Shown here one piece after another: positions 65 through 44,780 of a stretch of DNA of 64,000 bases. The first letter of the stretch is position 1; every line of letters begins with the position of its first letter. The DNA is taken from positions 4,751 through 68,750 of IMG/VR virus record IMGVR_UViG_3300013131_004609; one strand, 5' to 3'. Both the position numbers and the translations under genes were made by a program. A model generated the notes under the pieces. The model was not told the DNA's origin. It saw nothing but the letters and a program-made list of their open reading frames with translations, and searched no databases. This DNA is from a virus.

Positions 65-460
65 ATGGCGAACGGAATGAAGCAAGTGATACTTGTGCGT
101 AAGGACCTGAAGATGAAGAAATCTCAGGTGGCCTCCCTGGTGGCGAAGGCGTCCACCGAGTTCTTCCTCGCGAACGATGAGTCCGATCGCGGAGATGAGC
201 TGACCGTGAAGTTAACGCCTGAAGAGACGGACTGGATCAACAGTGGGTCCATTCGTGTCGTGCTGGGGGTCAACTCTGAAGATTCGCTGAGGTTGCTCGG
301 GATGCGAGCCGAGATGGCAGGACTTCAGTGTTACCCAGTGCAAGGCAAGATCTTTGAGGACACTGTGGATGACGGCATGTCCGAGACCCTCTGCATCGCC
401 ATCGGACCCGACGTTTCTTCAAGGATCGACAAAATAACAGGCGACTTAAAGCTGTTGTAA
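65..460 (+). CDS. Peptidyl-tRNA hydrolase 2 (PTH2)-fold protein, catalytic residues degenerate
   Basis: KQVILVRKDLKM, W..SG..RVVL and CIAIGP...IDKITGDLKLL match the PTH2 family; the GK, QxxH and DAGxT motifs are replaced. Confidence 0.8.
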   Translation: MANGMKQVILVRKDLKMKKSQVASLVAKASTEFFLANDESDRGDELTVKLTPEETDWINSGSIRVVLGVNSEDSLRLLGMRAEMAGLQCYPVQGKIFEDTVDDGMSETLCIAIGPDVSSRIDKITGDLKLL

Positions 461-495: not shown

Positions 496-577
496 GCCGC
501 TCTGGTGGAACTGGCATACACTCCGGATTCAAATCCCGGCGCCGAGAGGCATGTGGGTTCGACTCCCACGGGCGGCA
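496..577 (+). tRNA. tRNA-Leu(CAA)
   Basis: Acceptor stem GCCGCTC/GGGCGGC, anticodon arm CCGGA-TTCAAAT-CCCGG, long variable arm GCC-GAGA-GGC, T arm GTGGG-TTCGACT-CCCAC, discriminator A, no encoded CCA. Confidence 0.9.
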
Positions 578-600
578 CGAAGAAACAACTTCTTCAACAC

Positions 601-674
601 GGAACGGTAGCGCAATAGGTTAGAGCCCCTGTCTCATAAACAGGTTTGTGTGGGTTCGAGTCCCACCCGTTCCA
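601..674 (+). tRNA. tRNA with CAU anticodon, probably tRNA-Ile2 (lysidine substrate); elongator Met not excluded
   Basis: Acceptor GGAACGG/CCGTTCC (paired 1:72, so not fMet), anticodon arm CCTGT-CTCATAA-ACAGG, T arm GTGGG-TTCGAGT-CCCAC; directly upstream of tilS. Confidence 0.9.
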
Positions 675-694
675 CAAATTCTCTACGAGGCAAC

Positions 695-1288
695 ATGCTG
701 AAGTTCATTGGTGAACTACCACGTAAGTGCACGATCGCCTTCTCAGGCGGCATCGATTCCGTGGTGATCTCAGATTTTCTGATGAACGGTAAGCGCGATG
801 TTCAACTCGCCTTCTTTCACCATGGAACGCTGAACTCGCAGCGCGCTGAGGAGTTCGTGGTGAAGTTCGCATCGGAACGTCGAGTTCCCCTGAGGATTGG
901 ACGGATTAATTCCGAGAAATCCCGCGGCCTTTCCCCTGAGGAGTTTTGGAGGAATGAACGGTATACCTTCCTCGATTCCCTGGGAGGTCCTGTGGTGACC
1001 GGACACCACCTGGGGGACGCGATCGAGACCTGGATCTTCACCTCGCTCCACGGGGAATCGAAGTTGATCCCGTATTCCAGGGGGAACGTGATCCGGCCAT
1101 TCCTCATCACTCCCAAGGAGGAGATTCGGGCCTGGGCATCGCGAAGGAACTTGTCCTGGATCGAGGATGAATCCAACACCGATCCGCGTTACATGCGCAA
1201 CCTCATCCGGATGGAGATCGTCCCGCAGGCCCTGAAGGTGAATCCTGGGATTGGAAAGATTCTTCGCAAGAAGTACTTGGCTTCTTGA
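695..1288 (+). CDS. tilS: tRNA(Ile)-lysidine synthetase, minimal catalytic domain
   Basis: PP-loop SGGIDS, RY.FL, GHHLGDAIET, RPFL, EDESN...YMRNLIR; ATG 695 after GAGG (ORF-track start 650 overlaps the tRNA). Confidence 0.9.
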   Translation: MLKFIGELPRKCTIAFSGGIDSVVISDFLMNGKRDVQLAFFHHGTLNSQRAEEFVVKFASERRVPLRIGRINSEKSRGLSPEEFWRNERYTFLDSLGGPVVTGHHLGDAIETWIFTSLHGESKLIPYSRGNVIRPFLITPKEEIRAWASRRNLSWIEDESNTDPRYMRNLIRMEIVPQALKVNPGIGKILRKKYLAS

Positions 1289-1339: not shown

Positions 1340-1861
1340 GTGAAGAAAGTAAGACTCAACCTGAAACGCGGTTCCAAACCGTGGTCATTCACGCTCTACG
1401 ACTCTGCCGAGTCTGCCTTCTACCTCAAAGACGAACCTCCTTATCCGGACGGGTTCGAAGAAGAGTATAGAAAAATAGTCTCCTTGCGCCCCGGTGACAT
1501 ACTCGAAGTTGAGTGGGTCGGGTCCGAGTGGGTCTTCGCGGATGAAGGCGAAGATTTTCTCTTCAACCCGATCACATTGTCGTCAACAGATTACGACAAA
1601 TACGACAAGGTCCGAGTTGGAAAGATCACCCCAGCCAAAGGCGCCGAGGAGAAGATGGGATACCTCGAGGTATACAGCGGTTGGATCTTTGGCGGGGACA
1701 TTCCGTGGCGCCCCAAGGACTCTCGAGACGGTCTTAAAATAACCGAAGTAAAAGACGCCGTTGTATCTAAATTCGATTTCCCGAAGTTATTCTCGGACCC
1801 CTCCATGGGCCTCCTGCAACAGGAGGAAGAGGAACAGCCCCTGTCAGGGGTTCTCAACTAG
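1340..1861 (+). CDS. Hypothetical protein
   Basis: 173 aa ORF with GAGG RBS and upstream ATACTTAC motif; no family recognised. Confidence 0.6.
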   Translation: MKKVRLNLKRGSKPWSFTLYDSAESAFYLKDEPPYPDGFEEEYRKIVSLRPGDILEVEWVGSEWVFADEGEDFLFNPITLSSTDYDKYDKVRVGKITPAKGAEEKMGYLEVYSGWIFGGDIPWRPKDSRDGLKITEVKDAVVSKFDFPKLFSDPSMGLLQQEEEEQPLSGVLN

Positions 1862-3082: not shown

Positions 3083-5686
3083 TCAAGAACTTAGACCTAG
3101 TTGCTGAGTTGTAGCACTCACCGATTCAGTGTCTACGAACGACCTTCTATTTATCCCCCTCATCTCTTCTACAGTCCTGTGTTTCGGAACTAAATCGAAA
3201 TATGGCAGTGATGAAGTCACTTCAAAGCTCAAGTTTTGAGAAGTCGTCTCGAAAGGTGGGACGACCTGCGTGGCAATTGTTCCTACACCCCTCTGTGTTA
3301 TGATCGCTGTCTTCCTGACGAATTTGACTTCTACGACGGACTCGAGGAGACCAGATTCACTTACGTTCTGTTTCGGAAGAGTGGTTGTCAAGTCTTTGTT
3401 GAATCCTTCTTCCGATATCGCGTCGAAGTCCATCGGAGACGTGTTGACTTTCACAAACTTTGTGTATTGTCTCTGCTCGAGCATGTCTCTAAACTGTCCG
3501 TACTTGCCTCTCCTGAATATAACCTTAGTGTGTTGAGGCATGCCATTGACTAGTCCGTACTTCCATCCTCTGATCACAGGAGATACTCCAAACACATATG
3601 AGCTGTACATGTCTGATGTTCCTGACAGATGTAGACTTGCAACAGTCGGATTAACAGACCATGGACCGTCATTGAGTGCAGTCGATCTAAAGGTGGGATC
3701 GATCCTTCTATCTGTTAATTTGGCAGAATAGTCAGGAAGATTGTTGCTCCCTATCATTTGGCTTTTCTCAATATCGGCGAATGTATAGAATTTTAAGTTA
3801 TTGATGGCAGCGAAAGAGGGATTTGTAGTAGTGCTTGATCCGCTACTGTATTGCCAAGATATCTGCCACCTACCTGGTGGTAGAGGATAGTTTTTGTTAT
3901 AGATGGACCCTGTCAAAAAACCATCTTCCATGAAATCGTAAGTTTCCATGGCAACTAGTCCTCCGCCTGTTCCGCTTATCTGTTCTATGAAGATCATCGG
4001 AAAACCTGCCGATATTGTCGAAGGTACACCTGGTACGGCCGTAAAGACTACCGTTAATTTGTCAGAAGTAGCCGCACATATGGCCCTGTCGTAGCTAAAA
4101 GACCACGGATAAGAAGATGTTATGTCCAAAAAAAACTGAGAGAATTCTGACGACCCTAGAGCTCCTGAAGGTATTTCAGAAGGACCGTTCAAGTACTTAC
4201 TTGTAGCTGACACAAGTGCTTTAAAGTCCGTAGATCCTGACACCCATTTTATTCCCTTTGACGTGCTGTCGGGTTTTGATCCTGACTTAAAGAAGTAAAT
4301 GTTTCTATCTGACGAAGTTGTGGGTACTAATTCGTCATCTCTAGTACTGACTCTCCACGGTCTTAGTGTGTCTGAAATGCTTGAAAATGCCTGCCAGTTT
4401 AGCTCGATGTATTGGTCTTTGTAATTCGGTATTCCATATGTGTCTGTACCGTCAGAATAATCTTCAAAAGACTCGTTGTATGCAAGTCTCTTTTTCGTTG
4501 CATCATAGGTTCTTCTACCGTACGTTACATTATTCAGGTCTCCAAATCCGAACAAGAATTTTACTAAATCAGACGTGTACATAGAGCCAGTGACGTATTC
4601 GAGTCCGGGATCAGGAGCAGAATAGGGTGCCAGGTAGTCTACATGTGTGATTTTCTTCGATAAGTTTACATCGGACGAAAATAAAAGCGAATATCCTGTT
4701 TCCCTCTCAAGTGACTTATCGGCATATTCACCCACATTTATTGCAACTGTGCCATAACCTCCGTCGAGGAGTGTTTTTTGCCTGAGTCCGTTTATGAAGT
4801 TGTCAGCTGAAGTCTTCTTTTCTAGTAAACCTGGGACGATCGGAATGAAAGAATTTATGATTTTTTGCGGCGAGTTTCTTAAGTTGCTTAGAGAAATGTC
4901 GTCTCTTACTGAACTGGGGATGTCGGTGTCGTATGTCTTGTCAGTGACAGGAAAGCCAAAAAATCCTCCAGAAGCTGTCACTGTATTCAGCAACAGATCG
5001 TCTTTTTTTGGTGAGTCCCAGTTCAAAGTAAGAGTTCTGCTTCCTAGACCCAGTTGACCTTCTACCGACACAAGTCTTTGGACCTCAGAATACCTACTTT
5101 CATACGGAAATGATCTAGTCCAACCATTGAAGACAGTAGGATCTTTTAAGAATCCATCTGAAGACCGGTCTACTTCGATGGAATCAAATAACAAATAGCC
5201 CACACTGCTTGTTGTGACGTTGACATAAGGACTAAAAGCATTGACTTTATTCTCTATAGACCATATCTGTGATTCATTTCTCTTCAATATAGACGACATG
5301 TCGGGAAGACATGAGTCGTAATATCTCTCATTGTTGTCGTGACATTGGAGAATTCTGTAGGCAGTCCTCGAGACTTGCGAATTCAAAGGTTTTAGTCTAA
5401 AAGACAGACTCGGATTCTTGTTGACAGCTTCTGAACCGTATGTAGAGTTGAGAGGTTGTTGATTAGCAGCATAGAATTTGCTAAAGTACCTACCACGAGA
5501 CCCAGTAGTAAAAGTTACTTTAGAACCTCTTCCTACGATCTTATTTAGGAGAGAACCGGTGACGTAATCGTCCTGGGTGGATCCGTAGTACGAAGCCTCG
5601 TAGAAGATATCGAACTGATCTAGGACGGGATCGTTTCCGATGACGTCCGCCAAGGAGTTTGTGTATACAGATTCGTATATGCTCAT
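3083..5686 (-). CDS. Large Ser/Gly/Thr-rich putative virion protein
   Basis: 867 aa, ATGA overlap with the upstream gene, in baseplate operon, repeated [ST]GS. Confidence 0.65.
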   Translation of the reverse strand: MSIYESVYTNSLADVIGNDPVLDQFDIFYEASYYGSTQDDYVTGSLLNKIVGRGSKVTFTTGSRGRYFSKFYAANQQPLNSTYGSEAVNKNPSLSFRLKPLNSQVSRTAYRILQCHDNNERYYDSCLPDMSSILKRNESQIWSIENKVNAFSPYVNVTTSSVGYLLFDSIEVDRSSDGFLKDPTVFNGWTRSFPYESRYSEVQRLVSVEGQLGLGSRTLTLNWDSPKKDDLLLNTVTASGGFFGFPVTDKTYDTDIPSSVRDDISLSNLRNSPQKIINSFIPIVPGLLEKKTSADNFINGLRQKTLLDGGYGTVAINVGEYADKSLERETGYSLLFSSDVNLSKKITHVDYLAPYSAPDPGLEYVTGSMYTSDLVKFLFGFGDLNNVTYGRRTYDATKKRLAYNESFEDYSDGTDTYGIPNYKDQYIELNWQAFSSISDTLRPWRVSTRDDELVPTTSSDRNIYFFKSGSKPDSTSKGIKWVSGSTDFKALVSATSKYLNGPSEIPSGALGSSEFSQFFLDITSSYPWSFSYDRAICAATSDKLTVVFTAVPGVPSTISAGFPMIFIEQISGTGGGLVAMETYDFMEDGFLTGSIYNKNYPLPPGRWQISWQYSSGSSTTTNPSFAAINNLKFYTFADIEKSQMIGSNNLPDYSAKLTDRRIDPTFRSTALNDGPWSVNPTVASLHLSGTSDMYSSYVFGVSPVIRGWKYGLVNGMPQHTKVIFRRGKYGQFRDMLEQRQYTKFVKVNTSPMDFDAISEEGFNKDLTTTLPKQNVSESGLLESVVEVKFVRKTAIITQRGVGTIATQVVPPFETTSQNLSFEVTSSLPYFDLVPKHRTVEEMRGINRRSFVDTESVSATTQQLGLSS

Positions 5687-7389
5687 GGGATGTAACTGTT
5701 TCCTGCTCTTACATATGATCCGTACAAAGTTATGTTTATGGATCCTGTACTGAGCTGAACGTCGTGTCCTTGAAGTCCTCTCATGTCGTTATAGAAAGAA
5801 GAAGATATGAAGGATGGGATGCCGTATATGTCTGCATTTGGATCTGCTACTGTGTCAACATCAATCTTAAATGATCTAAAAGAAGGTCTATTTTTTGAGA
5901 CAGAAAGAATTAGTTTCTCTCCCGGGTAGAGGAGATAGGGAGAAGACTTGCTGGCTCCTAGGAAGATGTCCGATACGAAGTAGAAACTTAGAGGATTAGT
6001 AAAGAAGTTTCTCGTGTCCAGCTGAAGACTTTGCGTGACGTAATCGATCAAGGCTTGTCTATCTAGAACATTCTCTATGTAGAACGGATTTCTCATGGCT
6101 CCATCAAGTCTAAAGGATCCTGTGTTGGCCATCGTGTATTCTCCGCCAAATATAGAGCCACCACTAGGAGAGAAACCTGTCATTCCTCTTCCAAAAGAGT
6201 CAACGCCTATGAGGCCTACTTGATCACTTATGCTATCGTTGCCTGATTTGAAAAATTCTTCACTGAATTTTCTCGTGACCAAGTTTTTAAATTTCTGCTG
6301 GGGGCTCACGATGAAAGAAATAAATCCTCCCGCATAGTCTATTAATTTGCAGCCGTTAGTGATTGAAGCCGTTGATTTTATTTTTATGCTTCCCGTATGA
6401 AATCTTGTTAATCCGGAGTAGCTTGCTGAGACTACAGAGTCATAACTACCTGTGTTGAGTCCGACTGTGTTCGCGTACCAGTAATCTGTGCTGTTGTATC
6501 CATCAAATATTTTATTTAATTTTATTTCAAAAGTTGTGTCTTCTTCGTGCGTGATGACACCTTTGCTAATCATATCTCTAATTTTTCCTGTTCCATAGTT
6601 CTTCTGGGACATTAACGTCACTGTTAGAGCTGGTCCTCCTTGATCATACAGAGAAAAGATGTTCACAGCATTGTTCATTCCTGATGAACCGTTAAGTGTG
6701 TAGTCACCAAGTGAAGAAGTCGCGGTGCATAGAGTAGACTTGTCATAAAACCATCCGCTTCCAAAGCAAAATGGTATTTCTACCACGACTTTTTCAATTA
6801 AGAAAGGGTATTCGTTATTTGCGCTAAAAGTCTCACTAGGAGAAGCATCGAACTTCGAAGATCTCTGAGCACTCAAAGAATAGTTCTGTGAAGAAATTTC
6901 TCCTTGTTTGTCGAGATTAAAATTTTCTCCGCCGAGATTAAAATTTTCTTCCAATAATTTTTGAGTGGGGGTGTTGTCCTGCTCAGGAATTCTGTAGACG
7001 CTTAAGTCTCCTATTGAAAGATTTTGACCTCTAAAGTCGTGCATTAAATGATCTTCCACAAAAAAAGAACCATTCGCAAGACTTGAAGTCTTACCACCAG
7101 TATTCACACTAAAATTTTTGAAAGGACTTAGGCTTCCTGTAAAGTTTATTAGACTCGTCGGCAACGCCCAGGTTCCAGTCGACGAGTTAAAATAGTAAAT
7201 ACTGCTGCTGTTATGAATCATTGAAGTCTTAGAACTGACCGGGAATGTCAGTCTTATTACTTCTTTGTTTCTAAGTGAATTCGAGAATGTCTTTATGCTG
7301 TCTCCAACCGACGCATTCGAGCCTGACGCATAGAATGCGTCGTTTAAGTCTTGATCATGTAGACCATCTTCTACGAAAGATCTCGTCAT
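5683..7389 (-). CDS. Putative virion structural protein
   Basis: 568 aa, beta-rich, coupled by ATGA overlaps, repeated [ST]GS. Confidence 0.65.
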   Translation of the reverse strand: MTRSFVEDGLHDQDLNDAFYASGSNASVGDSIKTFSNSLRNKEVIRLTFPVSSKTSMIHNSSSIYYFNSSTGTWALPTSLINFTGSLSPFKNFSVNTGGKTSSLANGSFFVEDHLMHDFRGQNLSIGDLSVYRIPEQDNTPTQKLLEENFNLGGENFNLDKQGEISSQNYSLSAQRSSKFDASPSETFSANNEYPFLIEKVVVEIPFCFGSGWFYDKSTLCTATSSLGDYTLNGSSGMNNAVNIFSLYDQGGPALTVTLMSQKNYGTGKIRDMISKGVITHEEDTTFEIKLNKIFDGYNSTDYWYANTVGLNTGSYDSVVSASYSGLTRFHTGSIKIKSTASITNGCKLIDYAGGFISFIVSPQQKFKNLVTRKFSEEFFKSGNDSISDQVGLIGVDSFGRGMTGFSPSGGSIFGGEYTMANTGSFRLDGAMRNPFYIENVLDRQALIDYVTQSLQLDTRNFFTNPLSFYFVSDIFLGASKSSPYLLYPGEKLILSVSKNRPSFRSFKIDVDTVADPNADIYGIPSFISSSFYNDMRGLQGHDVQLSTGSINITLYGSYVRAGNSYIP

Positions 7390-8738
7390 AGTGTTCCTAG
7401 CCTTCTCTTTGAGCTCAAGATGCTGTCGCTCAGAGGAGTCTCGTAGAGACCCGATTTCACGCCTCTCGTTACTTTTATGCTTCCATTCTTAAAAAGTTCA
7501 CTCTTTACCGTGCTGTTTAGCTGAAGACTTGAAGTCAGTTCCAGAGGTATCATCACAGGATATTCTACAGTCTGGAAGTTGCTACCTGAACGAAATAGTA
7601 CTGTATTGTTGTCGTTGAATTTTGCGTCGGTCCTCATGTAACTCTCAGACTCCCTCAAGTCAAGCATCGTCTTTCTGTGTCTTCTATTGTCTCTGTTTTT
7701 CGAGTTCCACATGGAGTTTCTATAGGTCACAGAGTCAACACCTTGCTCTATGAACTCACAGTCAAATCCCGCCGTCGCTGACTTTTTCTCTTGGGTGACG
7801 TAGTTCTCGGAAAACCTCGACGCCGTCATGGACATCAGAGCTGCAGTCATCATCGATCCATAAGATGCACTTGGCTCTAAGTTTCTTGGGTAAATAAAGT
7901 CCTTGAAAGGCTTTAAGAAGTTCTCCTCCAAGTTGAAATAACCGTCTGGTGGTCCTACAGGCACAGATCCCGACGTTCCTGTGGAAATTTTTCTTACGTC
8001 GGATGCGTCCAAGAAGAAAGCAGAATTTCTGTCGGTGTCGTAGACGAATACAGACTCTACTGAATCGCTCGATAGTCTCCAATTCGTGTTGCCGTTTCCA
8101 AACTGCCCTTTGGTAGAATGAGGCTCGAAGGGAAAGTAGAGAGAGAAATTTGCTACTACAGGTCTTATGGAGAAAGGCTCTATGATTCCATTTAGAACTT
8201 CGTTCTCACGTTGATTGACGTCAGAAGTCACTATGGGATACTGAAAATTGTTCGACCCAGAAGACTTTTGAATGTATGCTATCGGGTCGAATACGTCTAG
8301 CTCGTAGTACGCGGCCGAAGCCGTGATAGGCATGCTATTGACGCCAAAGAAAGTATTCTCATACAAGTGACCTGCTGTTCCTGCTGTAAACTTTGCAAGT
8401 CCTGCAGTCCAGTGCTTGTTTTGTGTTATTTCTATTCCATTCTTGTAAGCGTCTATGCTTGAAGAAGAAAAGTAGTCAACGTTTGGTGAGAGTATCTTTC
8501 TCTGATTTCCTGACGGGTCTGTGTCTATTGAGCTAACTGCGTATACAGATGAGTTTGCAGAAGATTTATTTCTAAATGAGCTTTTGATAGCAAATAAGTT
8601 TATTGCTTGCGAGCCAGATGCGGCGGCCTCAAACCTGTCTTCGAAAGAGCTTTCATTACTCTTTTTGATTTGGTACGACGTGTTGTAGTAATTGTCGTCT
8701 CCCTGTATCGTTATTACACTGATGGTATTGTTGGACAT
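7386..8738 (-). CDS. Putative virion structural protein
   Basis: 450 aa in baseplate operon, Ser-rich. Confidence 0.6.
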   Translation of the reverse strand: MSNNTISVITIQGDDNYYNTSYQIKKSNESSFEDRFEAAASGSQAINLFAIKSSFRNKSSANSSVYAVSSIDTDPSGNQRKILSPNVDYFSSSSIDAYKNGIEITQNKHWTAGLAKFTAGTAGHLYENTFFGVNSMPITASAAYYELDVFDPIAYIQKSSGSNNFQYPIVTSDVNQRENEVLNGIIEPFSIRPVVANFSLYFPFEPHSTKGQFGNGNTNWRLSSDSVESVFVYDTDRNSAFFLDASDVRKISTGTSGSVPVGPPDGYFNLEENFLKPFKDFIYPRNLEPSASYGSMMTAALMSMTASRFSENYVTQEKKSATAGFDCEFIEQGVDSVTYRNSMWNSKNRDNRRHRKTMLDLRESESYMRTDAKFNDNNTVLFRSGSNFQTVEYPVMIPLELTSSLQLNSTVKSELFKNGSIKVTRGVKSGLYETPLSDSILSSKRRLGTL

Positions 8739-8747
8739 GGCTCTGGC

Positions 8748-11700
8748 TCAGTATTTCTTTACTCTTCCAACTATTTGCTGGACTAAAAATGTGTCGTCTA
8801 TCGCTCTTCTCTCTCCAATGTAGTTGTTCTGATGCTTGTAGAGATGTTTGTGTCTCTCCAGCATGTGTGATTCTATCACGTAGTTTGTTCCTTTGTAGAT
8901 AGTCTTGCTGGGTATCAGCTGCTCCACAAAAGATGATATCGATATGTCGAACCATCTGTAGAACTCCAAGAATTTTCTGAAATCAGGTTTTCCTGACAAA
9001 CGATTGAAATACACGTCTCTCAAGTTTTCTAGGTCCGGGTAGTCTGGAGAGAACGCCATTTCAGGACTGCCCAGAATGTCTCCAAGAAGATCAAATGAGG
9101 AGAACATGTTTACCATATCCTTGTCGAGAGAATCTACCATTGAGAACTCAATGGACAAACGCAAGTCGTCTTGAGGCTCCTCCTGGAGAAAGAATGTGTC
9201 GCTCAGGTAAGTCGCAGAGAGAACAGCTTGTGGATTTTCAAGAACCAAGCTGTTGTCTTCAAAGCTTCTTATCCTTACCTTGTCGCTTATTGAAGATTCA
9301 TCAAAAGTAGGTGACAGATAGGAATAGTTGAAGATGTCACCTCTCAAGACTTGAGTCCCCGATAAGAAACCTGTGCCCCTTGTGACAACATTATTCTGAC
9401 TGAAATCCAAGAATTCTATTTCACCAATACTTGTGGCATTCTTGGTAGGCTGCTTTGTCAGTGTGTCTAGTCTAAGCTTCTGAAAAGATCCTGATATCTT
9501 GTTCACGTAGTTGTAGTTGACTAGGGGATTTGATACTCCTACCGACTTTGGATTTCTTACGTGCTCTTTCCACTCTGATTCGGACAATCCTTTCGACCAA
9601 AATCTAAGATTTGAAGCCCATCCAAAAAACTGTGTGGTTCTCGCTATGGGATCAGATGACGTAGTATCGTTTAGAAACAGGTAAGATCCCATCGGAGTAC
9701 CCGTAGGAATATTTTGGTTTTCGCCCATGCTTATGTAGGTTCCCGACACATTGTGTTGCGTGGATCCACTTCTAAATACGTTGCCCTCAGCGAGAGGCTG
9801 CTCAAAGAAGTAAGACGACGTAGTATAAAGATCGTTCAACTCTCCTGATTCCGTCTTTCCTACTCTCAGGTAGTAAGACGATGACCTAACAGAGTCTATC
9901 TCATCGTTTCTCATGCAGCCAATCGCCACATTCCACTTGTCTCCGTCGAAGATACCCTTTCCTTTCATGTCTAGCGTCAAATGAAGCAGAGGAGAAGACG
10001 TCGACATGCCAGGTCTCACGAAAGCCTGAACTGAAGCGATACTGCGCGGGTAATCATTGAATTGCGTCGCGACGACGTTGACCACAAGACCTGGGTCTGC
10101 TGTCGCAGAGCTGCCTGTGACGATCATTCTCATCAAAGACTGGCCGTTGAGATCAGTTATTAGATCGATTCTCTCATTATTGAATTTGAAAAGTCCTTCC
10201 ATGTTCCAAGAACCAGAAGTGTGCAAACCGTCCCACACGTAGTCCGTGTCTATATTGGCACCAAGAGATGACTTTACAAATGTACCTCTTGGATGTGGGT
10301 AGCCTGGTTCTGGGCGTGAACTTGAAAGAGGCGTCGTTACTACGAGCGACGAACCAGTGAATTCAGCCATTGAACCCACTTCTATTCTGTTTTCTCTCGA
10401 GTCTTTTAATTGCTTTACGGTCGATCCACCGTATTCTCTTATTCTCAGGCTATTTTCCGGGTCTATTCCTATGGACCTCAAAAAAGACCTTATGCTGTGC
10501 TGTGTTCCCTTCGACCTGACGATGTCAGGCATGTTGACCAAAACTCTTCTGAGAAGAATAGACTGTATCTTCTTCAAAGGTGTGTTGATGTTCGTTAGAC
10601 CCGCTATGTTTTGACCTTCGGCGAATTGCTCGACGTTTGCGTTGCTGAAGAACTTGGGAAGGTAGAATCCGTATTGACGTACGAGGTCTTCTAAGAAGTT
10701 GTCTGGTGTTGTTTCGTTCAGCTCGTAGTCGACAGTTTTTAGAGTTCCAAATGCATCTACGTACATCTTAAGTTCGTCAAAAAACTTTGCCCAGATGTAT
10801 AAGAAAGTCAAGATTATCTGAACGGATCCTCTTTTCCCCTGTCCCGGGATGCCTTCACCAGTATAGGGAGAACCACCGTTGCCCTCCACGTCACTGAATC
10901 CGTCTTCGAGCGCTCCTTCGAGAAGATAGTGCTTGGGTACTAGTCTTATGATGTTGTTCGGATTTTTTGCGTCGTAGAGACTTGCTGACGTCAAGAGATC
11001 GATGTTGAGTGAAGTCACATCTGCATATGCAGGAAACAGGACTTTCTTAAATTCATCCCGCTCGTCTGTAAGTGGGCTTTTTGTGTCGTCTTCATTATCA
11101 CTCCTTAAGTCGAACGAAAAGTTACTGACATTAGAGTGCAGGGAGTTGCCTGAGCTGTCGAGAACGACCGAGTCTATAGAAGAATTTCCATTGAACGAGA
11201 GAGAACCTGACGGTTCATTAAATCTATAGTAGAGTTTCAGGTCTGGTGATGAGTATATACCTTTGGAGGCGTACAGTTTTTGAAGTCTCTCGTCTCTCAC
11301 GGAATGAAAGATCCTGACTTCGTCAAGAGAACCACTGAACGTCTGATTGGGAGTGACGAGAGTGTTACTCTTGAAGAAAGAGCTGCCCGATCCTATCACA
11401 AAGTCCGAAGAGTCTATGTTGAGTTTGTCGAATCTTATTCTGCTGACACTCTCAGCAACTAGACCTTCATTTCTATAGAAATCTAGTTTGTGCTCTCGTA
11501 CGTTTTCTTTGTTGAGTATGACGCAGACGTGATTGTATTCACCTTTTCTCAGAGTACCTTCCACGTAGTTTCTACTGGATCCTGAGCATACACTGAAAAC
11601 TGCATTGACGTCCGTCGTCGACGCAGAAGGTTCTAAGTAAAAAGTAAAAGCGTCTTGTTGCGTTGATCTCTTCTGAAAGATTACTTGTGTACTGTTCGCC

Positions 11701-12245
11701 ATTTCCGGTATGTACACAAGAGCCTCGAGGGACAGTGAAGTCTCATCTCCCGGATTCAGCACTACTTCTCCAGAGTTATTCTTCGATAGCTCAGGATACA
11801 GTGTTCCAGACTTATCTTTTACGACGATCCATGAGCCATCTATCTGTGTTGTCCCTGAAGAGCCAGAGAATCTCAGAGAGCCAGTCCACGTCGGGAATCT
11901 GTCGAACACCCATTTCTCGAAACCTGTGAGAGAGTCTAGGAAGGATTCAACTTCTCTTTTAGATCCATCGAAAGGGTAACCGTTGATGATCTTGTTGAAT
12001 GCCTCGTTGACTTTTACTTCAGCAGAAGAGAAGAAGCAGTGATTTTCAAAGAACGACCAGTCCAAGTTTAACTGCTGTGTGCTCTTCAGCGGATAACCAA
12101 GTGGGTCGTACTTGAAAGAGTCATCACTGCCCGTATTTGAATCTGTCAGGTTGAAATCTGAGTAAGAAAGTTGTACGGGCTTGGAGTCCTGTACAGCAGA
12201 CTTCATGAAGGACGGTACGTAAGGTGAGTTGGACCTAGTGCTCAT
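8748..12245 (-). CDS. Baseplate wedge-like protein (tail protein I/gp7-like core) with two LamG/concanavalin-like domains
   Basis: LVRQYGF...RRVLVNMPDIVRSKGTQHSIRSFLRSIGI core; LamG signatures YNHVCVIL..FSGSLDEVRIFH and WNVAIG..NLRFWSKGLSESE. Confidence 0.7.
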   Translation of the reverse strand: MSTRSNSPYVPSFMKSAVQDSKPVQLSYSDFNLTDSNTGSDDSFKYDPLGYPLKSTQQLNLDWSFFENHCFFSSAEVKVNEAFNKIINGYPFDGSKREVESFLDSLTGFEKWVFDRFPTWTGSLRFSGSSGTTQIDGSWIVVKDKSGTLYPELSKNNSGEVVLNPGDETSLSLEALVYIPEMANSTQVIFQKRSTQQDAFTFYLEPSASTTDVNAVFSVCSGSSRNYVEGTLRKGEYNHVCVILNKENVREHKLDFYRNEGLVAESVSRIRFDKLNIDSSDFVIGSGSSFFKSNTLVTPNQTFSGSLDEVRIFHSVRDERLQKLYASKGIYSSPDLKLYYRFNEPSGSLSFNGNSSIDSVVLDSSGNSLHSNVSNFSFDLRSDNEDDTKSPLTDERDEFKKVLFPAYADVTSLNIDLLTSASLYDAKNPNNIIRLVPKHYLLEGALEDGFSDVEGNGGSPYTGEGIPGQGKRGSVQIILTFLYIWAKFFDELKMYVDAFGTLKTVDYELNETTPDNFLEDLVRQYGFYLPKFFSNANVEQFAEGQNIAGLTNINTPLKKIQSILLRRVLVNMPDIVRSKGTQHSIRSFLRSIGIDPENSLRIREYGGSTVKQLKDSRENRIEVGSMAEFTGSSLVVTTPLSSSRPEPGYPHPRGTFVKSSLGANIDTDYVWDGLHTSGSWNMEGLFKFNNERIDLITDLNGQSLMRMIVTGSSATADPGLVVNVVATQFNDYPRSIASVQAFVRPGMSTSSPLLHLTLDMKGKGIFDGDKWNVAIGCMRNDEIDSVRSSSYYLRVGKTESGELNDLYTTSSYFFEQPLAEGNVFRSGSTQHNVSGTYISMGENQNIPTGTPMGSYLFLNDTTSSDPIARTTQFFGWASNLRFWSKGLSESEWKEHVRNPKSVGVSNPLVNYNYVNKISGSFQKLRLDTLTKQPTKNATSIGEIEFLDFSQNNVVTRGTGFLSGTQVLRGDIFNYSYLSPTFDESSISDKVRIRSFEDNSLVLENPQAVLSATYLSDTFFLQEEPQDDLRLSIEFSMVDSLDKDMVNMFSSFDLLGDILGSPEMAFSPDYPDLENLRDVYFNRLSGKPDFRKFLEFYRWFDISISSFVEQLIPSKTIYKGTNYVIESHMLERHKHLYKHQNNYIGERRAIDDTFLVQQIVGRVKKY

Positions 12246-12257
12246 TCTTTGATCCCG

Positions 12258-13766
12258 TTATGATCCGCTCAAGATTCTGAAAGCAGGTGATGAGTTTAGG
12301 TATTTTGTCTTCACGCCGTTGTGGTTTATCATCAAGTCAAAGATGTAAGTTCTTCCTACTATTAGTCCTGATGTGTAGAATTTAAAGAACATTCCTGAGG
12401 CATCGCTTGAAACTTTTGTCGAATTTCTCACGTCGTCGAAAGGAACCACGACTTCATTTGTCACGGCGTCTCTCAACTGGTAGTGTACTTCCCTTATGAC
12501 GACGCCTGCTAGCTCGACTGGGGTTTTTGTAACCTTGATCAGAGGAGAAGTTTGATCAAATATGTTTACTCTGACGTATACTTCTTCGTTGTCGTAGTAT
12601 GTGTTCTTGACGTCATACAAGTTCACCACATACTTCTTCAGTCCTCTAGAAGAAGTCCTAGTTGCCGGTGATGACGTTAAATTACTACCTGTAACATATG
12701 CCACTGTTTGATCGAGCGAAGTCCAAATGGGCGTGAAAACTACAGAACCCGACAAAGCTATCTTTGACTTTATTGTAGCGTCGGACGAAGGTAAAGTCAC
12801 GGACGCTGTGTAAGTTCCGCTAACATAATTCGATCCATAAGAGAATTGCGATCCTGAGAAGTAGAGGCTGTAATAACCACCAGATATTTCAGTCGACATC
12901 TTGAGGAGTAGGCTGTTACTTCCTGTCACTTGAGACAAACTACTTCCTGAGACGATGTTTGTCAGACTACCTCCGACGTAATTGTAGAGTGTTATGTTGC
13001 ACGGAGAGTCAAAGGTTAAATTCTGAGAATCGTCTGTTATAGAATCATCGAATCCGACAATAAGCCTTGGATGCTTAGACTCATCAAAAGCGTTACGTGA
13101 AGCAAATCTTTTTACGAAATAAGTTTGGGTATTGACTTCCAATGACTTTAATAAAGATATTCTAAAACCACTGTCGGGTATCTCTCCTGTCAGTGTTGCT
13201 GACAGGAGAGATGTGACGTCCACCACGAGGTCCTCTGTCCCTTTTACGAAAGTTTGATTTTTCTCTGTTGAAGCTAAGCTCAATGAACTTGTCACGTAGT
13301 CTCCTGGAGAGCTTTGAGCATCGCAATCCTTTTCGCTTCCCGTCACATACCACAGAGTTCCGAGCGACGAAGTAATCCAGTTGCAAGAATCTGTGTCAGA
13401 ATAGTAGGTGACGTCTCGTCCTATTCCTTCGTCAAATGAGGCGGACAATGGAAAGACGCTGACAGAGAAGTTAGCAGGAGTAGGCTGCCCACCATACACG
13501 TCTTTGAGACGAAGTTCACACCAGAAGCTAGAGTCGTTTATGTCGATTTTCCCATCTCGATGGAGTGACTTCAGATCTGTCAAGTCAAAATGAACTAGAA
13601 TCCTTGACACTTCTGTGTTCGGGGAAGAGCCGCTGCTCGTCACGCCGTAAAGCTTGAAGAGATCGAGAGTGCCTGCCGCTCCGACATTGCTCCCCGTCTT
13701 CCTGACTCCCTTCACCACTTTGTTTGTGATGTAAGTGTCTTTGTCTGCTTTAATTAGTTTCAGCAT
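12258..13766 (-). CDS. Putative virion protein with DNRLRE-like N-terminal domain
   Basis: ADKDTYI...SRILVHFDL...LRL...GFRI...FASR...PRLIV pattern; 9 [ST]GS motifs by manual count. Confidence 0.6.
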   Translation of the reverse strand: MLKLIKADKDTYITNKVVKGVRKTGSNVGAAGTLDLFKLYGVTSSGSSPNTEVSRILVHFDLTDLKSLHRDGKIDINDSSFWCELRLKDVYGGQPTPANFSVSVFPLSASFDEGIGRDVTYYSDTDSCNWITSSLGTLWYVTGSEKDCDAQSSPGDYVTSSLSLASTEKNQTFVKGTEDLVVDVTSLLSATLTGEIPDSGFRISLLKSLEVNTQTYFVKRFASRNAFDESKHPRLIVGFDDSITDDSQNLTFDSPCNITLYNYVGGSLTNIVSGSSLSQVTGSNSLLLKMSTEISGGYYSLYFSGSQFSYGSNYVSGTYTASVTLPSSDATIKSKIALSGSVVFTPIWTSLDQTVAYVTGSNLTSSPATRTSSRGLKKYVVNLYDVKNTYYDNEEVYVRVNIFDQTSPLIKVTKTPVELAGVVIREVHYQLRDAVTNEVVVPFDDVRNSTKVSSDASGMFFKFYTSGLIVGRTYIFDLMINHNGVKTKYLNSSPAFRILSGS

Positions 13767-13774
13767 TGGTCCTC

Positions 13775-15646
13775 TTACGTGTTAGACACGCACTTTCCGA
13801 TTATGTTGATGTCAGGATATTTTATCTCAAATATCGATCCCTCTGGTGGGTAGATAATCTGATTCTTTGTGTTTGTGGACACGTCGAAGTTTATTGGTGA
13901 GTACTCTTTGTTCTTCACGGTTCCGTACAGATTATTGAATTTAACTCTGTCCACAGATATCACACCGGGTTTTGAGAATATTGTTGCAATGACATCTGAG
14001 ATCACTATCGGCTGTCCTATGTTGAAGTTGGTTAGCTGAAACTGAGACTTGAGGTCCGTTATTATGCTTTGAAGCAAGAGGCTCTTGTTGAGTGACGGAT
14101 CTACTACTATCTGAAAAAATAGCTCTAGATTGACGATCGAAGCGTCCATGACGTCTATTGCGTCCGACACCATTCTGTACGCATTCAAGTATCTCTTGAG
14201 ATTCAACTTTAAAGCGTCAGGAGAAGTTATCAATTGATTCTGCGAGTTTCTGGAGACTATGTAAAGTCTCGACGCCAGCGGGTTGTTTGGGTTCTTAGTT
14301 ATGGCTGCTCTGAAGACTCTTCCGAAGTTGCTTGGCATCGTGTAGACCCTTGTCAGAAGGTCTTCCTTCGTCACAATTCTCTCTTGCGAGTTCTTGATCG
14401 TCGGAACCAGAGCGAGAAGATCGTCGGCAGTGGGAGCGTCCTCTCCGCCCGATGCAACTTGTGGGTTCGTCGCCTCGACCGTCCTTCTGACTTGTGCCTG
14501 TTCTGACGCAGATGGATTATTAGGAAAAGCTATTCTCAAGTCCGTTATGCTTCTGATCGTATTTACGTTGACGTTGTGGGAGAGTCCGCCGCCGTGTCTG
14601 TAGGTTACCGTGAGAGTAGTGTTTGACGCCGCGATTCCCAATGTTGAAGTCTGCAACATCTTCTGGGGATTCACGGGGACTCTTGAGAAGGTCTGCGAGA
14701 AAGGAAGCGGCAAGGAGAACTCAGATGGGTCAGGTATGACGTCGTCTTCGAGGTTGTCAGCAGTTCCTCCTCCGAACACCAGCGTCGTCTTTCTGTTGCT
14801 AAGAGATACTTCTTTTACAAATCTGTACGGTGCAGGAACTATTTTTAGGTTGTCCTTCACGAGAGAGTTTGTTGTCGAGTTGTCTACGAGGTTGAGGACG
14901 TTCCTGTACACGACGTCATGCGTTAGACTTCCTACTTCATAATAGACGTTGCCCAGTCCATCGACTACTCTCAGGATCTGTGTCACATCAGACTGTGACA
15001 AGGATAATCTTCTAAACTGTATGAACTCTCCTACAGAGAACGTTTCGGTCGTCAGATTTCCTGACGTGCACAGACCGGTCTTCTTCAAGATCTTGCTGAT
15101 TATCTTCCCGCCTATCCGTCTACCATTGACCGGAGGTATGGAAGGATCTAGAATGAGGGCGCCCGTGGAAGAGTCGACTGACCAGAATTTCACGTCCTCT
15201 AGAAGTGTGAACTGTGTGCCGTTGTCTGCCTGAATAATTGTTCCTTCTTGTACGGTAGGAAGGAAGTCGGGGTCTGGTGAGAGATCTGAGTCTGACAGTA
15301 CTGGTACTTCTATGTAGAAGTCTACGTTTGCGAGCGCCGCAGAAGCACCTACCACAGGTACGCCTGCACTTCTCAAGATCTTCTCGACGTTCTGTGTCTC
15401 TACGACCGTCTCGTTGTTTAGCTCTCCGTATAGGTGGTCCAGGTAGAACGATAGATTGTCTCCTACGTATGCCGCCATGTCCAAGAACAATCCTCCCACG
15501 GATGCCTCTGAGAAGTCCTGTATTCTGTCCGGGTAATACTGACGTGCATAGTCGAGCAATACTGTCCTGAAACTGTCAAAGTCTCTGGCCAGGTAGTTTC
15601 TCTGTCTGATTGACTTCAGTGCTGTCTTGTTGTCGTTGATCGCCAT
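13775..15646 (-). CDS. Baseplate wedge subunit (T4 gp6 / baseplate J-like)
   Basis: NYLARDFDSFR..L..YA..YYP..QDFSEASVG..FLDM.AYVGD.LSFY; GGEDAPT; SQERIVTKEDL..R...MP. Confidence 0.85.
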   Translation of the reverse strand: MAINDNKTALKSIRQRNYLARDFDSFRTVLLDYARQYYPDRIQDFSEASVGGLFLDMAAYVGDNLSFYLDHLYGELNNETVVETQNVEKILRSAGVPVVGASAALANVDFYIEVPVLSDSDLSPDPDFLPTVQEGTIIQADNGTQFTLLEDVKFWSVDSSTGALILDPSIPPVNGRRIGGKIISKILKKTGLCTSGNLTTETFSVGEFIQFRRLSLSQSDVTQILRVVDGLGNVYYEVGSLTHDVVYRNVLNLVDNSTTNSLVKDNLKIVPAPYRFVKEVSLSNRKTTLVFGGGTADNLEDDVIPDPSEFSLPLPFSQTFSRVPVNPQKMLQTSTLGIAASNTTLTVTYRHGGGLSHNVNVNTIRSITDLRIAFPNNPSASEQAQVRRTVEATNPQVASGGEDAPTADDLLALVPTIKNSQERIVTKEDLLTRVYTMPSNFGRVFRAAITKNPNNPLASRLYIVSRNSQNQLITSPDALKLNLKRYLNAYRMVSDAIDVMDASIVNLELFFQIVVDPSLNKSLLLQSIITDLKSQFQLTNFNIGQPIVISDVIATIFSKPGVISVDRVKFNNLYGTVKNKEYSPINFDVSTNTKNQIIYPPEGSIFEIKYPDINIIGKCVSNT

Positions 15647-15679
15647 CTTTGGACCTGACTTTTCATAAATAAGAAATCT

Positions 15680-16147
15680 TCATATCACATACAAAACAAT
15701 TTGCAAACCTTTTTTATAGACATCCAAGTTTGGTATGTTGTAAGTTATGTTAACTTTTATGACACCCGTATTTCTGTTGTCCATTCTATCAACTTCTGAA
15801 GAGAAGTCTTCTAAATCTATGAACGGCATCCAAGTGTCGACTGCGTCTTTGATTCTGTTCACTGCCTCGTTGTCAAAGTTGTCCTGAGAGACGAACTCTG
15901 TCGTCAGCGGTCTCAGGTTGGCCCCAAAGTTGTAAAGTCCAAGACGCTCACCCCAGTTTGTTAGGAGTAAATTCCTCAAATTGTCAGCAAACTGCTCCTC
16001 AAGGCTGTAGTTCATCTCGAGGATACCGTCCTTTGCGCCGATCTTCAGAGGCGTCTTTATTCCATAAGGTATCTGGGAAGTCTCGAGACTCTCATCCTCT
16101 ACGTTCTGTTGGGTCTTTCCCACACTCTTGAAGCTATACACTGCCAT
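15680..16147 (-). CDS. Baseplate gp25-like (sheath initiator) protein
   Basis: QFADNLRNLLLTNWGERLG.YNFG..LR...I.DAVDTWMPFI motif; next to gp6-like gene. Confidence 0.85.
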   Translation of the reverse strand: MAVYSFKSVGKTQQNVEDESLETSQIPYGIKTPLKIGAKDGILEMNYSLEEQFADNLRNLLLTNWGERLGLYNFGANLRPLTTEFVSQDNFDNEAVNRIKDAVDTWMPFIDLEDFSSEVDRMDNRNTGVIKVNITYNIPNLDVYKKGLQIVLYVI

Positions 16148-16220
16148 GTGACTAACTATTGACACGAAAATTTAGTCGACCTCGACTTTACTTGTTATCG
16201 TCAAAATCTAATATAGACAA

Positions 16221-16547
16221 ATGCCTTTAACGGATGAATTAGCGGATCAAATTGCTTCTAAAGTGAGCAAAGAAATAGTGAGAAGTACTGTTCCTGCTGC
16301 AAACAGACCACCATCTTTAGGTGCAGCCGAACAAGGTAAAATTGAGAAAAACTGGGAAGAAATAATCAAACTGATAGTGAAAGAAGTTTTCACCCAGATA
16401 AAGGCTCAGGCTGTCATAAAAATAGACAATTTCAGCATTACAGGAGTTCCTTCTGAAAAAGCTACTTTGACGGCCCCACCGGGCGGCGGTCTTGTCGCAG
16501 GAACAATTTCTCCACCTACTAATCCGATTACAGGAAAGATCACTTAA
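16221..16547 (+). CDS. Small protein between gp5-like and gp25-like genes, on the opposite strand
   Basis: 108 aa, helical N-half and Gly/Pro/Thr-rich C-terminus; fills a gap with no comparable minus-strand gene. Confidence 0.6.
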   Translation: MPLTDELADQIASKVSKEIVRSTVPAANRPPSLGAAEQGKIEKNWEEIIKLIVKEVFTQIKAQAVIKIDNFSITGVPSEKATLTAPPGGGLVAGTISPPTNPITGKIT

Positions 16548-18036: not shown

Positions 18037-18037
18037 T

Positions 18038-42780: not shown

Positions 42781-42784
42781 CACC

Positions 42785-42813
42785 TGTGCAAACTGTACCT
42801 CACGTGGTATAAT
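42785..42813 (+). promoter_or_regulatory. Sigma70-like extended -10 promoter for DinG-like helicase
   Basis: TGGTATAAT at 42805-42813, 11 nt before ATG 42825. Confidence 0.5.
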
Positions 42814-42824
42814 GTCAGGCCAAC

Positions 42825-44771: not shown

Positions 44772-44780
44772 GAGGTCAAC

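Follow-up and report, generated by a model that had tools for sequence, protein, structure and literature searches.

A 64,000-nucleotide stretch of viral DNA (the window; bases 4751-68750 of the 68,750-base IMG/VR record IMGVR_UViG_3300013131_004609) carries on one strand the genes for a PTH2-type peptidyl-tRNA hydrolase, a tRNA-Leu(CAA), a tRNA with the anticodon CAU and a short form of TilS. As read from its sequence, the locus is probably a translation-support operon, whose tRNA-Ile2(CAU) and mini-TilS would act as a graded supplement to AUA decoding and not as a gate. CheckV estimated the record to be 21% complete, and the window is therefore a fragment of a jumbo phage, a giant freshwater phage with a genome of roughly 300 kb. 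Two relatives served for comparison. G001 (278 kb, 84% complete) is collinear with the window and has products 21-76% identical; its genes include one for a gp23 capsid protein of the T4 type and those for DNA polymerase III alpha, DnaB and ribonucleotide reductase (RNR). The second, G003, is 303 kb long.

The tRNA(CAU) gene stands immediately 5' of tilS. The ATG of tilS, at 695, lies 19 nt past the tRNA end called by ARAGORN and 20 nt past the discriminator base A674, in agreement with the preliminary description, in which the spacing was put at 20 nt. No terminator-like site was found between the two genes in a scan of positions 1-2600, and co-transcription of the tRNA and tilS was inferred from this; the sole plus-strand match of the scan was the tRNA's own anticodon stem. 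Counts from the sigma-70 and terminator scans of the same region were no higher than those from shuffled sequences. The tRNA-Leu(CAA) is separated from the tRNA(CAU) by 22 nt, and the same pair is found 5' of tilS at five other loci (L020, L021, L031, L032 and L033).

The tilS product matched PF01171 (3.6e-31) and TIGR02432, the NCBIfam equivalog-domain model lysidine_TilS_N, with 108.6 bits against a cut-off of 93.6. All 22 family members aligned share the PP-loop motif SGGxDS (S17-G18-G19-x-D21-S22) and further columns without change, and the HHLxDxxET and DxSNxxxxxxRNxIR blocks align to the Aquifex aeolicus and Escherichia coli enzymes. The aligned profile covers residues 25-227 of the 317-aa A. 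aeolicus TilS (1wy5) and residues 14-199 of the 433-aa E. coli TilS. An AlphaFold2 model of the protein had a predicted local distance difference test score (pLDDT) of 93.5. Foldseek placed TilS structures from A. aeolicus, E. coli and G. kaustophilus at ranks 1-6 (2e21, 1ni5, 1wy5, 2e89, 3a2k), with a TM-score of 0.79-0.85 normalized to the query (TMq) and only 0.36-0.39 normalized to the target (TMt) for type I structures.

The TilS enzymes described so far are reported to be of type I, with an N-terminal domain (NTD) and two C-terminal domains (CTD1 and CTD2), or of type II, with the NTD and CTD1 only (PMC11947777; PMC12514573). In the 197-aa phage protein neither CTD1, which binds the tRNA body (PF09179), nor CTD2, the acceptor-stem reader of type I (PF11734), gave a match. 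A TilS split over two genes was considered and rejected, as none of 15 neighbouring ORFs (open reading frames) of 12 loci showed a TilS substrate or C domain at E <= 1. The 173-aa ORF that follows tilS recurs in L002, L003 and L004; it matched no Pfam family at E <= 1, and no TilS C-domain was detected in it. Relatives longer than 345 aa numbered only five, at no more than 35% identity, and those with a named source were ordinary cellular TilS, which is weak evidence. No family in PHROGs matched the phage TilS at 1e-4. By sequence and predicted fold, the protein was confirmed as a TilS made of the catalytic N-terminal domain only, and lysidine formation by it is predicted.

ARAGORN labels the tRNA(CAU) as Met. 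This label, an A4:U69 pair that is not the commonest one in tRNA-Ile2, an enzyme without the TilS-specificity domains, and TtuA-type thiolases as the next structural neighbours would all suit an elongator tRNA-Met, or a PP-loop protein with another chemistry such as thiolation, and no part in AUA decoding. Such an account is highly improbable in view of the tRNA itself. Its acceptor stem, GGAACGG/CCGTTCC, contains A3:U70, A4:U69 and C5:G68. In a survey of 234 genomes, tRNAs for Met and fMet were reported to have C3:G70, and A3, G3, C70 or T70 to mark tRNA-Ile(CAT) and to exclude Met and fMet, A3:U70 never being found in the latter; C4:G69 and C5:G68 were frequent in tRNA-Ile(CAT) but not universal (Silva et al. 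2006, PMC1635315). Among 12 distinct tRNA(CAU) sequences 5' of phage tilS genes, 11 have A3:U70, one has U3:A70 and none has C3:G70; all 12 have C5:G68, and the 4:69 pair is A:U in nine and C:G in three. The window tRNA is also of a non-initiator type, with G1:C72 paired and an anticodon stem, CCUGU/ACAGG, that lacks three closing G-C pairs. Its anticodon loop is CUCAUAA (7 nt; U33, A37, A38), and CCA is not encoded. On the side of the protein, the TilS hidden Markov model scored above its cut-off and the TtuA matches were 12 to 32 orders of magnitude weaker.

Comparison of the tilS-linked tRNA(CAU) copies showed compensatory changes at 17 of 19 stem pairs, which supports the cloverleaf. The anticodon loop does not vary at all, and in most copies the acceptor stem and T arm hardly vary; the D arm, anticodon stem and variable region drift. 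When a covariance model of these copies was run against G001, the top score went to tRNA-Ile(GAU) (63 bits), by a small margin over the next tRNAs (60 and 58 bits). The acceptor stem of that tRNA, GGAACGT...ACGTTCC with A73, is nearly the stem of the window tRNA(CAU), as expected if one isoleucyl-tRNA synthetase (IleRS) charges both. In orthologue alignments of at least 45% identity, 196 ATA positions faced I in 55%, V in 18%, L in 12% and M in 2%; ATT faced I in 53% and ATC in 56%, and ATG faced M in 43%. Judged by these alignments, ATA is read as Ile in this phage. The demand for AUA is also large, with 562 ATA codons against 380 ATG codons, and the tight linkage of the tRNA to tilS is conserved. 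Together these results support the assignment, already implied in the preliminary description, of the tRNA at 601-675 to the Ile2 type and tie it to TilS; lysidine at position 34 (k2C34) and charging with Ile are predicted.

Two side observations concern the tRNAs. The Rfam family RF04354 (Plastid-ycf2 5'UTR) matches the reverse complement of the tRNA at 601-675 over its full length with 31.9 bits (gathering score 65.7). The plastid trnI-CAU gene adjoins ycf2, and RF04354 may in effect be, as we presume, antisense trnI(CAU); if so, the match would be a weak hint of Ile2 likeness. The tRNA(CAU) genes of L026 (5825-5910), L027, L029 and L034, with lengths of 83-86 nt, have a long variable arm (about 13-16 nt). 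Such an arm is not usual in a CAU tRNA, as in bacteria it normally marks Leu, Ser and Tyr tRNAs.

The mini-TilS is widespread. A search at E <= 1e-10 among proteins of 108-345 aa returned 898 protein clusters; among the 120 clusters listed, lengths were 184-230 aa and identity to the window TilS was 60-100%. A profile scan of IMG/VR confirmed at least 566 of 597 candidate stretches, the contigs reaching 303 kb in length. The best 80 matches in 185,579 species genomes comprised two contigs of metagenome-assembled genomes at 43-46% identity, which may be mis-binned phage, and otherwise proteins at no more than 35%. Named relatives are the Pseudomonas jumbo phages PA5oct and MIJ3 (44% identity, annotated tilS), and two uncultured phages of 635-642 kb also carry the gene. 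On these matches, mini-TilS is a large phage-specific family.

Linkage to a tRNA was assessed at 84 loci, of which 80 came from the IMG/VR scan and the others were L016-L018 and the window's own record. At 14 loci a same-strand tRNA(CAU) was found 5' of tilS within the flank examined, at distances of 15-21 nt (five loci), 87-90 nt (two), 677-1027 nt (six) and 5.1 kb (one). The only other tRNA in the linked flanks was Leu(CAA), except at L017, which has a tRNA cluster. All linked loci but L017 fall among the 17 loci whose TilS is at least 55% identical to that of the window. Two further members of this group have a tRNA(CAU) split by an intron, 7.9 kb (G001) and about 150 nt (L022) 5' of tilS; counting these, 15 of the 17 loci have a linked tRNA(CAU). 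None was found at L023, L025 and L028 within the flank examined, and a covariance-model search of the 70 loci without an ARAGORN tRNA(CAU) gave hits in L022 only.

An ARAGORN run without intron search reported no tRNA(CAU) in G001. This was wrong, as the covariance model and Rfam show the intron-split copy. A group I intron of about 236 nt (RF00028; 93.6 bits at a gathering score of 50) cuts the G001 gene (L104:9253-9562) right after the anticodon, between CUCAU and AAACCG, and the spliced tRNA would closely match the intron-less tRNAs of L007 and L021. The intron position resembles that of the classic Azoarcus tRNA-Ile(CAU) intron. At L022 (225-528), a tRNA of the GGAAC type is split by a group-I-like insert (284-470) that scored 39.2 bits, below gathering; the insert was placed between U33 and C34, and position 37 would then be G, which is odd for an Ile2 tRNA.

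In PA5oct, three tRNA(CAT) genes lie about 9 kb from tilS; the published rules make one of them initiator-like (C1xA72), one Met-like (C3:G70) and one Ile2-like (G3:C70). The latter two (L119:9559-9632 and 10040-10113) have identical bodies and differ in the acceptor strand, CCCTCGG (C3:G70) against GGGACTT (G3:C70), so that the pair looks as if it arose by duplication and an acceptor-stem swap; both are annotated as tRNA-Met in the record.

The genes of the window record differ sharply in their use of ATA. In its 66 ORFs ATA is the commonest Ile codon (562 of 1385). The counts of ATA among Ile codons given in the preliminary description were all reproduced exactly: none in tilS (0/17), clpP (42043-42780; 0/16) and a Cas4-like gene (22037-22855; 0/10), 10/19 in the gene at 56815-57567, and a few in PTH2 (2/8), a DinG-like gene (3/27) and a TnsA/resolvase-like gene at 62448-62849 (2/9). 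Gene GC content ranges from 0.31 to 0.59. Class A, the ATA-avoiding class, was defined by an overall GC content of at least 0.495, which is not a measured expression time, and an expected ATA fraction was calculated as A/(A+T+C) at each gene's own four-fold sites. The 16 GC-rich genes have 22 ATA among 227 Ile codons (0.097; four-fold expectation 0.236). The 31 other genes, mostly virion genes, have 380 of 775 (0.49; 0.378), and 19 glycan genes have 160 of 383 (0.418; 0.401).

In a binomial model with the four-fold-site logit and third-position GC content (GC3) as covariates, the class odds ratio was 0.09 (likelihood-ratio chi-square 67; quasi-F p 1.6e-9 at an overdispersion of 1.34). In the overlapping GC3 band of 0.52-0.63, 10 of 95 Ile codons were ATA in class A against 79 of 150 in the other genes (gene-level Mann-Whitney p 0.004). 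Since the class effect is kept both with covariates and in the matched band, the ATA split is not an artefact of GC3, and the difference drawn attention to earlier survives that correction. The codons that separate the classes most strongly are AGA (log2 odds ratio 3.73) and ATA (3.14), far ahead of the next codon ending in A or T, GTA (2.35), in line with the earlier remark that ATA and AGA also look abundant in other virion and glycan genes. The share of TTG among Leu codons is 21% in class B and 11% in class A. The window tilS (GC3 0.70) is free of AGA as well (0/19).

In its direction, the split is also present in the relative G001. There the orthologues of the ATA-avoiding genes have a mean GC3 of 0.40, against 0.65 in the window, and their four-fold expectation equals that of the other orthologues (0.38 and 0.39). 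Nevertheless, they contain 41 ATA among 194 Ile codons, against 398 of 999 in the others (Fisher p 4e-7); without tilS and one very GC-rich gene, the count is 41/158 (p 8e-4). Across 41 orthologue pairs the ATA fractions in the window and in G001 are correlated (Spearman 0.47, p 0.002). Lower ATA use at equal four-fold expectation indicates that the ATA-avoiding class is an old, selected property.

These comparisons bear on a reading in which the ATA-poor genes are recent GC-rich acquisitions, by horizontal transfer, and the split says nothing about translation. The ATA-poor genes do have a GC content of 0.50-0.59, against 0.31-0.47 for the rest, several are host-like auxiliary genes (ClpP, PhoH, DinG, Cas4, PTH2), and composition has changed in the window lineage, as the G001 orthologues are not GC-rich. 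But the class effect withstands covariates and GC3 matching, the G001 orthologues are lower in ATA at equal four-fold composition, and the genes are syntenic orthologues of 53-76% identity and not new arrivals. The TilS family is phage-specific, cellular TilS being no more than 35% identical among the best 80 matches, and tilS is ATA-poor even where its GC3 is 0.22-0.30. This reading is largely refuted and was judged very unlikely.

The codon is avoided by tilS itself in all lineages sampled. Clustering of 85 tilS genes at 80% identity gave 20 clusters, each represented by one locus, and these lineages are not fully independent. Across them, tilS has 17 ATA among 254 Ile codons, against 69.7 expected from pooled locus frequencies (z -7.9) and about 97 predicted from its own four-fold sites. 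The ATA fraction of tilS lies below that of its neighbours in 20/20 lineages, over a tilS GC3 of 0.22-0.70. In PA5oct the counts are 2/15 for tilS and 182/321 for the surrounding genes.

Which other genes avoid ATA was assessed in the two relatives among genes with at least eight Ile codons. In G001, 35 of 232 such genes have less than 8% ATA. They include DNA polymerase III alpha (3/82), DnaB (1/29), RNR (2/39), gp32 (0/13), ligase (1/31), a 5'-3' exonuclease (0/18), a sigma-70-like factor (0/19), TilS (0/11) and a SpoU methylase (0/12), together with UvdE, PrkA, a MoxR-VWA pair, SIR2 and a second ClpP. Also among the 35 is gp23, the major capsid protein, with 0/32 at a four-fold expectation of 0.41. 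In G003, 23 of 243 genes are low in ATA, among them gp23 (0/19), the prohead protease (1/13) together with its neighbours, a ClpB-like ATPase (3/56), a MoxR-VWA pair and an exonuclease. The ATA-avoiding class thus comprises genes needed first and genes made in the largest amounts, and is not simply 'early'. As a side observation, a DUF2201 metallopeptidase/VWA gene (L118:742-2073, before the window) is free of ATA in the window record (0/28), G001 (0/25) and G003 (0/27). Its GC3 is 0.77 in the window record and 0.87 in G001, in both of which it is among the most GC3-rich genes, and only 0.38 in G003, so that its codon signature is strikingly constant; in both relatives it is paired with a MoxR-type AAA ATPase.

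In the preliminary description it was proposed that early-type genes fit the host tRNA pool and that ATA-rich late genes wait for phage TilS and tRNA-Ile2, the cassette timing an early-to-late switch. Part of this stood. The replication and transcription genes of G001 are nearly free of ATA (polymerase III alpha and the sigma-70-like factor, for example), tilS is ATA-poor in all 20 lineages sampled, tail, baseplate and glycan genes are ATA-rich, and the class split is conserved in G001. A chlorovirus tilS is reported to be transcribed by 7 min (PMC7589089), and in PA5oct tilS would lie in the early-transcribed direct terminal repeat (DTR) region, as inferred from the numbering of gene products (PMC6892783; PMC7318152). 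The strict form did not stand. The major capsid protein of both relatives and the prohead protease avoid ATA like early genes, so that dependence of late genes on AUA is not a clean rule. In a bldA-like gate the codon would be absent from genes expressed ahead of the decoder and confined to later ones; class A, however, still holds 22 ATA codons, and the PA5oct genes around tilS, putatively early, are ATA-rich. Hosts already decode AUA, and the effect can therefore only be one of rate.

Nor did promoter classes emerge from the scans. The T4-type late promoter motif TATAAATA had one match against 1.22 expected, and thus no signal. A k-mer search 5' of 152 G001 genes showed enrichment of two AT-rich motifs, ATAATTA (19 genes) and ATATTTA (14 genes). 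Neither motif sorts the genes by ATA use: the pooled ATA fraction is 0.25 and 0.36 in the genes that follow them and 0.23 in the remaining ones. A strict gate is accordingly doubtful, and a graded efficiency effect fits better.

The preferred reading, that of a graded supplement, can be laid out as follows. The genes of the operon would be transcribed together and the tRNAs cut out. The mini-TilS would convert C34 of the phage tRNA to lysidine, and possibly act on host tRNA-Ile2 as well; host IleRS would then charge the modified phage tRNA, which would read AUA. Most bacteria rely on a single minor tRNA for AUA. The cassette would increase the capacity to decode AUA in a phage whose commonest Ile codon is ATA, and the phage may tolerate, or drift into, heavy use of ATA and AGA since it supplies both the decoder and the activating enzyme. 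ATA would be kept out of genes that need fast translation or translation before the supplement, and used freely in tail, baseplate and glycan genes, which would depend on phage-supplied decoding to a graded extent. From codon use, the infected cell appears to be short of AUA-decoding capacity, and the split probably reflects selection, in genes made first or in bulk, for fast translation that does not rely on the supplement. The TilS of a GC-rich, AUA-poor bacterium has been reported to be about 1000-fold less efficient than that of E. coli (PMC11947777; PMC12514573). A burst of phage tRNA-Ile2 could therefore outrun such a host enzyme, which makes a need for a phage TilS plausible.

Several points weigh against the graded supplement. 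The argument for an AUA shortage is drawn from phage codon counts, and the genes counted are ORF calls without curated annotation. Composition accounts in part for how sharp the split is in the window, owing to a lineage-specific GC richness; the G001 orthologues not being GC-rich, the high GC content of the window lineage is a later accentuation. Of 214 neighbour genes, 36 have an ATA fraction equal to or below that of tilS (combined p only 0.014), which makes tilS a constant member of the ATA-avoiding class and no isolated case. The phage enzyme lacks both CTD1 and CTD2, which described TilS enzymes are reported to need for efficient and specific catalysis (PMC11947777). The window tRNA has A4:U69 in place of the frequent C4:G69 and is the only copy with a G12.A23 mismatch in the D stem. 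In a large clade of 50-56% TilS identity, no tRNA was found within 6 kb of tilS. The sole tRNA(CAU) of G003 lies in a tRNA cluster about 210 kb from tilS, and its U3:A70 pair is not covered by the published discriminator.

The cassette might instead restore an AUA decoder lost to degradation of host DNA or tRNA or to a tRNA-cleaving defence, phage TilS being needed as the host enzyme is no longer made. Broad tRNA sets in the relatives would suit such a replacement (14 tRNAs and the intron-split tRNA(CAU) in G001; 11 tRNAs and a transfer-messenger RNA (tmRNA) in G003), as would the company of PTH2 and, in G001, of the SpoU methylase. An analysis of phage Sf14 is reported to favour reliance on phage tRNAs late in infection (PMC12482277). 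Nothing in the window points to degradation of host tRNA or DNA, and the codon-class pattern is explained without it. Replacement was rated unlikely, although it is compatible with the graded supplement. The tmRNA gene of G003 (162886-163259) has the tag ANDELYSLAA by ARAGORN, the 11 tRNAs lie at the contig end, and the relatives also encode a tRNA-Arg(UCU).

The place of PTH2 in the locus is less direct. AUA-containing minigenes sequester tRNA-Ile2 as peptidyl-tRNA, and only by analogy with such minigenes would PTH2 fit a translation-support theme. The protein scored 69.3 bits against TIGR00283, below the cut-off of 82, its gene has a GC3 of 0.71, and its adjacency to tilS is not kept in G001. 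The G001 SpoU-family RNA 2'-O-methylase gene (L104:18518-19096) lies 470 nt 3' of tilS and may encode a second phage tRNA-modification enzyme; none of the SpoU kind was seen in the window.

More speculatively, the mini-TilS could stand for a third class of TilS, made of the catalytic domain alone and active without the two domains by which cellular TilS distinguishes tRNA-Ile2 from tRNA-Met, which either co-evolved with a private tRNA or is promiscuous on host CAU tRNAs. With a private tRNA, the nearly frozen acceptor stem, T arm and anticodon loop would keep the enzyme safe while the other stems drift; a promiscuous enzyme would lysidinylate host CAU tRNAs as well. The build-up of TilS, from a gene that avoids ATA, and of its tRNA might then work as a translational timer for the ATA/AGA-rich tail, baseplate and glycan genes. 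This proposal is a tentative one and rather improbable as a whole.

The features of the window are collected in Table 1.

Table 1. Cassette genes and gene blocks of the window, with positions counted from its first base
Feature	Position	Strand	Remarks
PTH2-type peptidyl-tRNA hydrolase	65..460	+	PF01981 4.1e-19; first gene of same-strand run
tRNA-Leu(CAA), reads UUG	496..578	+	ARAGORN; Rfam tRNA 42.3 bits at 496-577
tRNA-Ile2-type tRNA(CAU)	601..675	+	ARAGORN; Rfam tRNA 63.4 bits at 601-674
Spacer, 19 nt	676..694	+	GAGG at 687-690, 4 nt before tilS ATG
tilS, 197 aa, catalytic N-terminal PP-loop domain only	695..1288	+	PF01171, TIGR02432
173-aa ORF without assigned function	1340..1861	+	51 nt past tilS
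ATA/AGA-rich tail and baseplate block	3083..18397	-	gp25-like and baseplate wedge genes included
Cas4-like PD-(D/E)XK nuclease, ATA-avoiding	22037..22855	-	ATA 0/10; G001 orthologue 1/11, GC3 0.29
Mostly ATA-avoiding block	42043..46824	+	ClpP 0/16, DinG-like helicase 3/27, Hc1 0/1, PhoH-PIN 3/35
ATA/AGA-rich large proteins without family match	46869..61429	+	ATA 41-61%; includes 56815-57567

Pfam and PHROG scans of the window identified baseplate and tail genes (gp25-like, baseplate wedge), a large glycan-biosynthesis island (NeuB, a cytidylyltransferase, many glycosyltransferases) and host-like auxiliary genes, namely PTH2, TilS, the Cas4-like nuclease, ClpP, the DinG-like helicase, Hc1, PhoH-PIN, patatins and NADAR. 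ATA makes up 46-69% of Ile codons in the tail and baseplate block (genes of at least 100 codons). The block of large proteins is syntenic with G001 103977-117921, and two small ATA-using ORFs are interspersed in the mostly ATA-avoiding block.

The glycan island spans about 16 kb (22957-39483, minus strand) and encodes NeuB, a CMP-sugar-type cytidylyltransferase, UDP-glucose dehydrogenase, an epimerase, FkbM and TylF methyltransferases and at least eight glycosyltransferases. Its GC content (0.31-0.47) is the lowest of the window, and only part of it has orthologues in G001. The Hc1 histone-H1-like protein (67 aa; 44530-44733, plus strand; PF07432, 5e-11) is kept in G001. A motif with AAAATTT(T) recurs just 5' of several genes of both codon classes, at 20-60, 15660-16220, 22860-22900, 39485-39540 and 63560-63600. 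It precedes, for example, PTH2 and the genes at 15680-16165, 16221-16547, 22037-22855, 37546-39483 and 63605, and may be a promoter or operator element.

Work on TilS published in 2025 presents the C-terminal domains as the answer to two tRNAs that share one anticodon, and does not settle how an enzyme with fewer domains would tell the two apart (PMC11947777; PMC12514573). A mini-TilS with its presumed substrate 19 nt upstream, in a family found on at least 566 IMG/VR contigs, would offer a natural minimal system in which to study this. That phage tRNAs make up for codon mismatch is an established idea, and the locus adds to it, as the phage brings a modification enzyme besides the tRNA. The avoidance by tilS of its own codon in 20 lineages would be a clean evolutionary signature of limiting AUA decoding, and expression hosts that need more AUA decoding could be given the cassette as a compact genetic part.

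Early/late differences in codon usage of phages have reportedly been published already (PMC5683454). Development in Streptomyces is gated by a tRNA, bldA, and phages recode stop codons in late genes. Late-gene use of phage tRNAs has been reported as well (PMC12482277). Common to these cases and to the window phage is the notion of a scarce decoder that divides genes according to time or expression level. The window phage differs in that the scarce decoder would need activation by a phage-encoded enzyme, the gene for which avoids the codon.

Among viruses with a TilS, the chloroviruses are likewise large dsDNA viruses, and many isolates also have an AUA-reading tRNA (PMC7589089). AUA is far commoner in these viruses than in their GC-rich host, their TilS has been argued to serve AUA decoding and codon mismatch, and its transcript is very early (Duncan et al. 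2020, PMC7589089). They differ in infecting eukaryotic algae, and the available text of that account has no tRNA-tilS cassette, gene-class split or avoidance of ATA by tilS (PMC7589089). The TilS of MIJ3 and PA5oct belongs to the same family as that of the window (44% identity over 98% of the query; annotated coding sequence of 612 nt). PA5oct, too, is an AT-rich jumbo phage with an Ile2-like tRNA(CAT); it differs in that its tilS and tRNAs lie about 9 kb apart. In the MIJ3 paper the function of tilS is called unknown, and AUA does not appear in the main text (PMC6892783); the loss of the TilS C-terminal domains is not mentioned in the available parts of the MIJ3 and PA5oct papers (PMC6892783; PMC7318152).

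T4-like phages provide a similar case of a CAU tRNA that is mislabelled Met by software and carries IleRS signatures (Nolan et al. 2006, PMC1524935). Their tRNA-Ile(CAU) was presumed to be lysidine-modified by the host enzyme so as to read AUA, and no phage TilS is mentioned in the available text of that account (PMC1524935), whereas the window phage has tilS beside the tRNA. The bacterial TilS types I and II have the PP-loop N-domain in common with the phage TilS, which ends where that domain ends, and in the TilS literature searched no description of an enzyme with the catalytic domain only was found. Viral TilS and phage tRNA-Ile(CAU) have thus been published. As far as the literature searched shows, what is new is a TilS that consists of the catalytic domain alone and the abundance of this form, the close pairing of tRNA and tilS in one cassette, the conserved, composition-independent ATA/AGA split between gene classes and the avoidance of ATA by tilS itself.

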